NCBI GenBank assembly: GCA_032718475.1 | Contig: JAUCBJ010008890.1 | Coordinates: 1-64,000, forward strand | DNA: 64,000 bases | Origin: Nemertoderma westbladi | Lineage: Eukaryota; Animalia; Xenacoelomorpha | Direction of reading: 5' to 3' | Shown here: in pieces, positions 20,993-50,407 of the stretch | Layout of the letters: the number at the start of each line of letters is the position of its first letter | How positions within the stretch are numbered: the stretch's first letter is position 1 | Position numbers and translations under genes: made by a program | The notes under the pieces: generated by a model | What the model saw: the letters and a program-made list of their open reading frames with translations, nothing else | Told to the model about the DNA's origin: nothing | Database searches by the model: none

Positions 20993-23313
20993 TAGGATCC
21001 AATGGTTTCGGTAGTCACCAACCTACCCGAATATGATCCAATGGTTCCACCACTGGTACTCACCAACCCACCCGAATAGGATCCAATGGTTCCACCACTG
21101 GTACTCACCAACATACCTGAGTAGGATCCAATGGTTCCGGTACTCACCAACCTACCTGAATAGGATCCAATGGTTCAGGTACTCACCAACCTACCCGAAT
21201 AGGATCCAATGGTTCCGGTACTCACCAACCTACCTGAATAGGATCCAATGGTTCCGGTACTCACCAACCTACCTGAATAGGATCCAATGGTTCAGGTACT
21301 CACCAACCTACCCGAATAGGATCCAATGGTCCGGTACTCACCAACCTACCTGAATAGGATCCAATGGTTCCGGTACTCACAAACCTACCCGAATAGGATC
21401 CAATGGTTCCGGTACTCACCAACTTACCTGAGTAGGATCCAATGGTTCCGGTTGTCACCAACCTACCCGAATATGATCCAATGGTTCCAGCACTGGTACT
21501 CAACGCACCAACCTACCGGAATAGGATCCAATGGTTCCAGCACTGGTACTCACCAACATACCCGAATAGGATCTAATGGTTCCGGTACTCACCAACCTAC
21601 CCGAATATGATCAAATAGTCCACCACAGGTACTTACCAACCTACCCGAATAGGATCCCATGGTTCCGGTACTCACCAACCTACCCGAATAGGATCCAGTG
21701 GTTCCGGTAATCACCAACCTACCTGAATAGGATCAAATGGTTCCACCAGTGGTACTCACCAACCTACCCGAATAGGATCCAATGGTTCCACCACTGGTAC
21801 TCACCAACCTACCCGAATAGGATCCCATGGTTCCGGTACTCACCAACCTACCCGAATAGGATCCAGTGGTTCCGGTAGTCACCAACCTACCCGAATAGGA
21901 TACAATGGTTAAACCACTGGTACTCACCAACCTACCCGAATAGGATCCAATGGTTCCGGTACTCACCATTCACCAACCTACCCGAATAGGATCCAGTGGT
22001 TCCGGTAGTCACCAACCTACCTGAATAGGATCAAATGGTTCCACCACAGGTACTCACCAACCCACCCGAATAGGATCCAATGTTTCCGGTACTCACCAAC
22101 CTATCTGAGTAGGATCTAATGGTTCCGGCACTCACCAACCTACCTGAATAGGATCCAATGGTTTCGGTACTCACCAACCTACCCGAATAGGATCCAATGG
22201 TTTCGGTACTCACCAACCTACTTGAATAGGATCCAATGTTTCTACCACTGGTACTCATACTCATCAACCCAGCCGAATAGGATCCAATGGTTCCGGTACT
22301 CACCAACCTATCCGAATAGGATCAAATGGTTCCACCACTGGTATTCACCAACCTACCTGAATATGATCAAATGGTTCCACCAGTGGTACTCATCAACCTA
22401 CCCGAATAGGATCCAATGGTTTCACCACTGGTACTCACCAACCTACCCGAATAGGATCCAATGGTTCTACCACTGGTACTCATACTCATCAACCCACCCG
22501 AATAGGATCCAATGGTTCCGGTACTCACCAACCTATCTGAGTAGGATCTAATGGTTCCGGCACTCACCAACCTACCCGAATAGGATCCAGTGGTTTCGGT
22601 ACTCACCAACCTAGCCGAATAGGATCCAATGGTTCCACCACTGGTACTCACCAACATACCTGAGTAGGATCCAATGGTTCCGGTACTCACCAACCTACCT
22701 GAATAGGATCCAATGGTTCAGGTACTCACCAACCTACCCGAATAGGATCCAATGGTTCCGGTACTCACCAACCTACCTGAATAGGATCCAATGGTTCAGG
22801 TACTCACCAACCTACCCGAATAGGATCCAATGGTTCTGGTACTCATCAACCTACCCGAATAGGATCCAATGGTTCAGGTACTCACCAACCTACCTGAATA
22901 GGATCCAATGGTTCCGGTACTCATCAACCTACCCGAATAGGATCCAATGGTTCAGGTACTCACCAACCTACCCGAATAGGATCCAATGGTTCAGGTACTC
23001 ACCAACCTAGCCGAATAGGATCCAATGGTTCCACCACTGGTACTCACCATCACCAACCCACCCGAATAGGATCCAATGGTTCAGGTACTCACCAACCTAG
23101 CCGAATAGGATCCAATGGTTCCACCACTGGTACTCACCAACATACCCGAATAGGATCCAATGGTTCAGGTACTCACCAACCTAGCCGAATAGGATCCAAT
23201 GGTTCCACCACTGGTACTCACCATCACCAACCCACCCGAATAGGATCCAATGGTTCCGGTACTCATCAACCTACCCGAATAGGATCCAATGGTTCAGGTA
23301 CTCACCAACCTAC
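20993..23313 (-). repeat. array C: 39-bp unit (variants up to ~51 bp) = last 22 nt of PRPF8 exon 4 + donor; about 55 copies
   Basis: Minus-strand unit GGAACCATTGGATCCTATTC(A/G)G|GTAGGTTGGTGAGTACC is a copy of the junction at 23335-23297. Confidence 0.95.
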
Positions 23314-23455
23314 CTGAATAGGATCCAATGGTTCCACGTCGAGTATGTTGTCCCCGTAGTCGAGTGGCGGTTCTTCATCATCGAAGGGCGGGAATCTCAT
23401 GCGCTTAAAGTGGCGACGATCGCGTTTCTCTCGTCGCATCATAATCCACATAGTT
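23314..23455 (-). CDS. PRPF8: PRPF8 coding exon 4 (142 nt)
   Basis: ttctAG|A ACT ATG TGG...; encodes [47 protein letters not shown]; donor CAG|GTAGGT; phase fits exon 3. Confidence 0.95.
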
Positions 23456-23581
23456 CTAGAATAATCCAAAAGATAATAGAATAACTATGTCTAATTAAAT
23501 AAGAGGTTACACAATTAAATTAGTGATTTGATTATATTTAAAATAACAAATCAAATGGCAGTGCTCTCGCTCTGACGCAAG

Positions 23582-48900: not shown

Positions 48901-50271
48901 AACGTGTTCCCTACCTACTTGTCATATCACCATGTTCCCGTACTATCTTCCCAACGTGTTCCCTACCTACTTGTCATGTCACCATGTTCCCGTACTATCT
49001 TCCCAACGTGTTCCCTACCTACTTGTCATGTCACCATGTTCCCGTACTATCTTCCCAACGTGTTCCCTACCTACTTGTCATGTCACCATGTTCCCGTACT
49101 ATCTTCCCAACGTGTTCCCTACCTACTTGTCATGTCACCATGTTCCCGTACTATCTTCCCAACGTGTTCCCTACCTACTTGTCATGTCACCATGTTCCCG
49201 TACTATCTTCCCAACGTGTTCCCTACCTACTTGTCATATCCCCATGTTCCCGTACTATCTTCCCAACGTGTTCCCTACCTACTTGTCATGTCACCATGTT
49301 CCCGTACTATCTTCCCAACGTGTTCCCTACCTACTTGTCATGTCACCATGTTCCCGTACTATCTTCCCAACGTGTTCCCTACCTACTTGTCATGTCACCA
49401 TGTTCCCGTACTATCTTCCCAACGTGTTACCTACCTACTTGTCATATCACCATGTTCCCGTACTATCTTCCCAACGTGTTCCCTACCTACTTGTCATGTC
49501 ACCATGTTCCCGTACTATCTTCCCAACGTGTTCCCTACCTACTTGTCATGTCACCATGTTCCCGTACTATCTTCCCAACGTGTTCCCTACCTACTTGTCA
49601 TGTCACCATGTTCCCGTACTATCTTCCCAACGTGTTCCCTACCTACTTGTCATGTCACCATGTTCCCGTACTATCTTCCCAACGTGTTACCTACCTACTT
49701 GTCATATCACCATGTTCCCGTACTATCTTCCCAACGTGTTCCCTACCTACTTGTCATGTCACCATGTTCCCGTACTATCTTCCCAACGTGTTCCCTACCT
49801 ACTTGTCATGTCACCATGTTCCCGTACTATCTTCCCAACGTGTTCCTCTACCTGCTTGTCATGTCACCATGTTCCCGTACTATCTTCCCAACGTGTTCCC
49901 TACCTACTTATCATGTCACCATGTTCCCGTACTATCTTCCCAACGTGTTCCCTACCTACTTGTCATGTCACCATGTTCCCGTACTATCTTCCCAACGTGT
50001 TCCCTACCTACTTGTCATGTCACCATGTTCCCGTACTATCTTCCCAACGTGTTCCCTACCTACTTGTCATGTCACCATGTTCCCGTACTATCTTCCGAAC
50101 GTGTTACCTACCTACTTGTAATGTCACCATGTTCCCATACTATCTTCCCAACGTGTTCCCTACCTACTTATCATGTCACCATGTTCCCGTACTATCTTCC
50201 GAACGTGTTCCCTATCTACTTGTCATATCACCATGTTCCCGTACTCTCTTCCCAATGTGTCCCCTGCCTAC

Positions 50272-50407
50272 CTGCTTGTCATATCCCCATGGTCCCGTAC
50301 TATCTTCCGAACGTGTTCCGGGGGCATGTCCTCCTTTGGAGCCTCTACGAAGCCGAACTTTCGTTTTTCCGAATATCGGTGGATCTGAAGCTGCTGCCAT
50401 TTCCGGG
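50272..50407 (-). CDS. PRPF8: PRPF8 coding exon 2 (136 nt)
   Basis: ttttttttCAG|CC CGG AAA TGG; encodes [46 protein letters not shown]; donor AG|GTAGGC. Confidence 0.96.

Follow-up and report, generated by a model that had tools for sequence, protein, structure and literature searches.

Tandem arrays of exon-intron junctions at the start of three consecutive PRPF8 introns in Nemertoderma westbladi

The first 64,000 nucleotides (forward strand) of contig JAUCBJ010008890.1 from the Nemertoderma westbladi assembly GCA_032718475.1, in the following called the window, carry four coding exons of PRPF8 on the reverse strand, and three consecutive introns of this gene each start with a tandem array of the preceding exon-intron junction. 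Coding exon 1 (50787..50889, from the ATG to donor 1) is followed by intron 1 (50408..50786, 379 nt, without an array), exon 2 (50272..50407), exon 3 (24379..24576) and exon 4 (23314..23455). Spliced together at GT donors and AG acceptors, exons 1-4 give one open frame of 193 codons. Each of exons 2, 3 and 4 scored above the cut-off for the N-terminal domain PRO8NT (Pfam PF08082), and the product of exon 3 shows 85-92% identity to the 120 listed Prp8 proteins. A tblastn search with 9 of these 120 homologues (up to 1,971 AA) found no later Prp8 exons in the remaining 23 kb of the window (1-21000); therefore, intron 4 is at least 23 kb long with its end outside the window, or the locus is split.

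In the initial annotation, introns 2, 3 and 4 were described as starting with unrelated arrays of 52, 66 and 39 bp units, which was confirmed by Tandem Repeats Finder (TRF) and by alignment. TRF reported a period of 52 for 33931-50319 (313 copies) and 25072-29715 (88 copies), a period of 66 for 23582-24416 (12.6 copies) and a period of 39 for 20993-23335 (56 copies). Unit anatomy and junction counts were obtained from a wrap-around alignment. The 52-bp unit consists of 48 exon and 4 intron nt, the 66-bp unit of about 37 and 29 nt and the 39-bp unit of 22 and 17 nt; the last 48 nt of exon 2 and the last 22 nt of exon 4 are the seeds of the 52-bp and the 39-bp array. Compared to the exon tails, the modal units have mismatches at 5 of 48, 3 of 37 and 1 of 22 positions, respectively. 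All three arrays begin inside the exon tail and run head-to-tail, and the first unit spans the authentic exon-intron boundary. The arrays are derived from the exons, and not the exons from the arrays, because the residues encoded in the exon tails are conserved in Prp8.

All arrays lie on the reverse strand. The 52-bp array comprises a proximal block (33931..50271, about 312 units), in which the first unit has 56 nt and the first extra junction reads AT instead of GT, and a distal block (25066..29716, about 88 units) with a distinct composition of unit variants. The 66-bp array occupies 23582..24378 and the 39-bp array, which also includes 45- and 51-bp units, 20993..23313. Extra junction copies numbered 400 in intron 2 (401 rows minus one artefact at the end of a retrotransposon within the array, see below), 12 in intron 3 and 55 in intron 4, i.e., 467 in total, with copy numbers ranging about 30-fold across the three arrays. 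The initial estimate of about 470 extra donors therefore holds for junction copies; as donors, about 9% of them are dead, since GT was retained in 365/400, 12/12 and 47/55 copies, respectively (424/467 in total). Most units of the 39-bp array contain a second donor-like GT.

The end of exon 4 is pyrimidine-rich with CAG immediately before the GT, and some 39-bp units resemble an acceptor abutting a donor. This is the layout of a recursive site or proto-splice site, and most units are without that A. The far end of the array is adjoined by an unrelated tandem array of 53-bp (and 43-bp) units at 20606-20994. A 5-letter motif found close to the start of the unit in each of the three arrays was set aside as likely due to chance according to a rough estimate.

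Only donor sides were amplified, as initially annotated: donor 1 is single, leaving intron 1 without an array, and donor 1 as well as acceptors 2-4 were each found once when up to 4 mismatches in 22 nt were allowed. With three arrays among four donors and three acceptors, an exclusive occurrence at donors has P = 0.11 if all sites are equally likely, and the donor-only pattern by itself is not significant.

Contigs of four (X1-X4) of eight listed sequencing runs were compared with the region 24300-25125. X1, X2 and X4 behave as DNA, whereby X2 and X4 are from one sample and X1 is possibly from the source sample. None of the runs is recorded as RNA; X3 is listed as 'DNA?' and was taken as RNA, because the depth was 128 in exon 3 and 0 in the neighbouring single-copy intron. 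In X1, X2 and X4, single-copy depth was ~28, ~23 and ~4, and the 52-bp-unit bin reached ~12,300, ~8,100 and ~900; the depth ratios of repeat units vary between runs, and a summed contig depth is not a copy number, so these data show the presence of many copies and not exact lengths. The head-to-tail joint of the 52-bp unit was found in all three DNA runs. Single contigs of the 66-bp unit had a depth of 333 in X1 and 38 in X4, which is raised about ten-fold. Many copies of the 52- and 66-bp units thus exist in one independent sample besides the possible source. Position 24573 in exon 3 has an alternative letter in part of the X2 contigs, at a third codon position and synonymous, which is likely an allele.

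These data bear on the explanation that the arrays are partly an assembly artefact with inflated copy numbers, or that the four exons are a truncated duplicate while the expressed PRPF8 lies elsewhere. In line with it, no exon 5 was detected in the next 23 kb, where a GYF-domain gene lies on the other strand, and none of the listed contigs spans 24300-25125. On the other hand, the assembled 52-bp array contains 62 unit haplotypes arranged in regional blocks and an intact retrotransposon with open frames, which does not fit a collapsed or invented repeat. The tandem joint and the several-hundred-fold summed depth of the 52-bp unit in X1, X2 and X4 (not a copy number), together with the ten-fold depth of the single 66-bp-unit contigs in X1 and X4, also argue for real arrays. 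Finally, the four exons are in frame and exon 3 is identical to an expressed contig running 5,733 nt further. We consider an artefact or duplicate very improbable.

The retrotransposon is a non-LTR element (non-long terminal repeat; long interspersed nuclear element, LINE) of 4.2 kb at 29717..33930 on the reverse strand, in the same sense as PRPF8, and it splits the 52-bp array into its two blocks. Both frames are open (ORF1, 32924-33934; endonuclease and reverse transcriptase, 29860-32994), the element ends in a (TAA)n tail, and a short target-site duplication was read by eye. Array and LINE together account for 25,206 of the 25,695 nt of intron 2, the array itself being ~21 kb long. The non-array tail of intron 2 contains a dispersed repeat of very high copy number at 24832-25055 (summed depth in the DNA runs from the thousands into the tens of thousands).

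The sense strand of the LINE has six AATAAA signals, which are a possible risk of early polyadenylation for PRPF8, and the arrays have none. The U1 small nuclear ribonucleoprotein (snRNP) protects transcripts from premature cleavage. Accordingly, arrays of neutral origin could have acquired a later side effect, in that U1 snRNP loading over the 25.7-kb intron 2 shields the transcript from the polyadenylation signals of the LINE; the distribution of AATAAA fits this proposal. However, intron 2 is long only through array and LINE, and we consider such an effect extremely unlikely.

Donor choice was examined in the X3 contigs. One contig of 6,490 nt, which is spliced, matches 24379-24578 with 0 differences and continues for 5,733 nt past exon 3. 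The match ends precisely where the first donor of intron 3 begins, hence, this donor is used in one assembled RNA. Upstream of exon 3, two letters of the acceptor are matched and the third is not. The real exon 2 ends in CAG, and the GT-bearing intron-2 copies end in TAG (354/365) or GAA (10/365). Since the third letter is unmatched and TAG copies would match it, exon 3 was likely joined to the first donor of intron 2. The 52-bp and 66-bp units compared had a depth of 0 in X3, and neither intron retention nor decoy junctions were present in the X3 contig set, in which rare forms are dropped. The RNA junctions of the decoy donors proposed initially were thereby checked with one contig, directly at intron 3 and by this one-letter argument at intron 2.

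The composition of the 52-bp array gives indications of its origin. In intron 2, the intron head measures 8 nt in the first and the last units and 4 nt in the inner ones, and the array terminates with 7 nt that match the beginning of the unit. A founder duplication of 56 nt at a short microhomology, followed by the spread of a 52-nt form, could have led to this arrangement. Neighbouring units share a haplotype more often than expected (lag-1 identity of 0.23 vs. 0.094), thus, variants occur in regional blocks. This corresponds to ordinary minisatellite turnover, i.e., concerted evolution within a cluster. At four of the five positions at which the consensus differs from the exon, the exon letter was found in 12-127 units, in blocks deep inside the array, which are either founder states or due to exchange with the exon. 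A change of the encoded exon ends driven by the arrays was also considered; residues rare among the homologues were found at 6 of 38 positions in the repeated exon ends vs. 11 of 120 outside, a difference too small to claim such an effect.

The arrays are probably tolerated junction minisatellites, which arose by separate junction-spanning duplications, with splicing kept to the first donor. This neutral alternative, mentioned in the initial annotation, fits the RNA contig and published cases. A duplication with its start in exon sequence and its end in intron sequence would leave exon and donor intact and place the copy in the intron. Each of the three arrays probably originated from its own small tandem duplication spanning the junction. 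Slippage, unequal exchange and conversion may then have enlarged and homogenised the array in blocks, whereby the end units would be left out. Rare use of a downstream donor would lead to a stop within 4-12 nt and, likely, to removal of the transcript by nonsense-mediated decay. The 52-bp array has reached 21 kb and received a LINE, and no harm to the main transcript is visible.

Junction repeats are known from human genes. Intron 7 of F7 has a 37-bp variable number tandem repeat, the first unit of which contains the exon-intron junction, and experiments show that only the most upstream donor is used; 6-16, CBS, LMNB2 and PDGF are named as similar (PMC1557585). PRPF8 resembles this type in that the donor is repeated down the intron and the most upstream site is used. 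In contrast, the F7-type cases have 5-25 copies and one array per gene, whereas PRPF8 has up to ~400 copies and three arrays. Intron sequence makes up most of the F7 unit (4 + 33 nt), exon sequence most of the 52-bp unit of PRPF8 (48 + 4 nt).

The original report of the 'mirage' minisatellites in lancelet Adh3, known through later papers, is said to be that of Canestro et al. from 2002. In lancelets, such repeats occur in Adh3, troponin C and the globins BflGb6 and BflGb9 (PMC3087553), and in PGBD5, where the neighbouring exons 3 and 4 are affected (PMC3902484). They duplicate either boundary, show minisatellite-like turnover and reportedly leave splicing undisturbed (PMC3087553). Common to mirages and the PRPF8 arrays are boundary-spanning tandem units (10-160 bp), spare splice signals and local homogenisation. 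Furthermore, the globin mirages exclude units at the cluster ends (PMC3087553), and the end units of PRPF8 intron 2 likewise differ by their 8-nt head. Differences are the copy number, which is 2-7 in the globins and PGBD5 and up to about 400 in PRPF8, and the occurrence in three consecutive introns, at donors only, with a LINE inside and in a core spliceosome gene. Published junction arrays in PRPF8 were not found in a search of titles and abstracts, covering mostly non-subscription literature, so larger published copy numbers may exist. The PRPF8 arrays are real and belong to a known class, in which they stand out by size and clustering, with ~400 copies in one array and three arrays in a row in one essential gene.

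The initial annotation also raised the possibility that the arrays are selected decoy donors by which PRPF8 senses spliceosome activity. In such a system, splicing fidelity or U1/U5 supply would be sensed, as a loosened donor choice would lead to a stop and decay, or to intron retention. Indeed, whichever spare donor is taken, a stop follows within 4, 4 or 12 intronic bases in introns 2, 3 and 4, respectively, and none of the 424 GT-bearing copies keeps an open frame. By our own reasoning, however, a stop after a phase-2 GT(A/G)(A/G) is inherent to the donor sequence and no sign of selection. Many copies equal the real donor in consensus match according to a crude count over 9 positions (122/365, 11/12 and 14/47). 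Splicing-factor genes do use decoys, namely the decoy exons of SF3B1, OGT, ARGLU1 and DDX39B, some with multiple competing sites (PMC6097662), and autoregulation of PRPF8 has been suggested as a possibility (PMC8116631). The PRPF8 arrays share with decoy exons the spare competing sites, a large intron and an RNA-processing gene as host, and they would couple to decay or retention. Known decoy exons, in contrast, are short cassettes of deep conservation that carry both a 3' and a 5' site and for which retention has been measured (PMC6097662), whereas the PRPF8 copies are fast-turning tandem repeats, mostly without acceptors, and no retention was seen.

Acceptor-like sites were searched with a loosened filter, as a stricter rule of 9 pyrimidines in 12 positions fails all three real acceptors. 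None of the 1,138 YAG in the 52-bp array passed and the 66-bp array has no YAG at all; in the 39-bp array, 18 of 80 YAG passed, compared to 176 of 641 elsewhere in intron 4. In conservation, the decoy GTs do not surpass other positions of the unit. The +1 G is retained in 92% of the intron-2 units and 85% of the intron-4 units, with a median position retained at 100% and 98%; retention equals or exceeds that of the +1 G at 88% and 95% of the positions, although units are not independent, as variants spread in blocks, which makes conservation counts weak in either direction. The -2 A is missing from 37 of the 56 intron-4 units and the intron-2 copy nearest to the real donor has lost its GT. In addition, the main RNA form takes the first donors, and the same layout is found in genes unrelated to splicing (PMC1557585, PMC3087553, PMC3902484). 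With the +1 G unprotected, the nearest intron-2 copy dead, no RNA cover on the units compared and a ~30-fold range in copy number, the sensor claim received no support, and we regard selected decoys as highly unlikely. The same low probability is given to a fidelity gauge, in which ~420 live spare donors, each followed by a stop, would divert a condition-dependent share of PRPF8 transcripts into decay or retention once donor choice loosens, and provide a copy-number-based feedback of the spliceosome on its scaffold.

Several observations weigh against tolerated duplications with splicing at the first donor. The human genes 6-16 and CBS use the two nearest pseudo-sites as well (PMC1557585), while no such use was seen for PRPF8 in the one RNA contig set. 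The +2 T is present in 99-100% of units of all arrays, and all 12 intron-3 copies have GT. One intron-2 copy ends in CAG like the real exon 2, and the one-letter argument does not separate the two. The RNA evidence stems from one RNA-type run and covers introns 2 and 3; as contigs lose rare forms, minor or conditional use of decoys may occur. The DNA-run evidence covers the 52- and 66-bp units. Tolerance alone might not account for the clustering of three arrays. The window contains four further arrays (period ≥ 30, ≥ 4 copies) which touch no PRPF8 junction, a point in favour of tolerated repeats; four comparable arrays within about 37 kb give a chance of ~0.6-1% for a given site to fall in a first unit. 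Arrays at three of four donors then have P ~1e-6 to 4e-6, and at three of seven junctions up to 3e-5; both values are naive, since the window was selected post hoc among very many windows. Array growth away from splice sites is seen at 60928-62015, where a 30-bp array (36 copies) interrupts a LINE reverse-transcriptase remnant inside a Pao-type element.

The clustering suggests a raised rate of junction arrays in this gene or genome, and such a tendency is plausible. It could take the form of a genome-level mutational bias for donor duplications, e.g., by breaks linked to transcription or by R-loops at exon ends rich in G, which would enrich donor arrays throughout the genome above the level given by tolerance and leave the arrays functionless. 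Arrays at three of four donors, with ~0.6-1% expected per site from the window, fit this bias, and lancelet PGBD5 has repeats at two adjacent exons as well (PMC3902484). The RNA strand of each array has a G skew (0.54, 0.41 and 0.28 vs. 0.04 in the rest of intron 4), but the 27 G-quadruplex-type matches are confined to the proximal 52-bp block, with none in the other arrays. Moreover, the donor-only pattern has P = 0.11, lancelets duplicate both boundaries (PMC3087553) and the window was chosen post hoc. A donor-directed bias is considered unlikely, though, as the main rival explanation, with an appreciable residual chance. The naive P values also leave aside that junction arrays may last longer than others, as their first unit would not be open to deletion.

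Beyond exon 4, the remaining 23 kb of the window contain several retroelements and an uninterrupted frame of 1,305 codons with a GYF domain (11492-15409, forward strand), which is antisense to PRPF8 and apparently nested in its intron 4. By its layout, we take it to be GIGYF-like. Close relatives of this protein were not found, with three weak matches among 360 candidates, and the frame is present in five sequencing runs of one organism. A Copia-type LTR retrotransposon is located at 264-4311 on the reverse strand, with one frame break near 1141-1166. An inverted repeat of 119 nt (97% complementary, spacer of 70 nt) lies at 16759-17066. A single family of 68-bp (and 99-bp) tandem units occurs at 4664-5036, 51591-52191 and 52884-53166; its copies upstream of PRPF8 lie close to nested inverted repeats (52641-53309) that may represent a non-autonomous DNA element.

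As tolerated junction minisatellites, the PRPF8 arrays represent an extreme natural test of first-donor choice, in which an essential gene is apparently spliced correctly past ~365 live spare donors in one intron, more than ten times the largest count in the published cases compared. The locus is suited to measuring the error rate of donor choice. If it were true that stress triggers the use of spare donors, the locus would show a new kind of feedback on a splicing factor. It also lends itself to asking whether junction repeats arise at a raised rate in some genomes, which bears on models of intron gain (PMC3087553).

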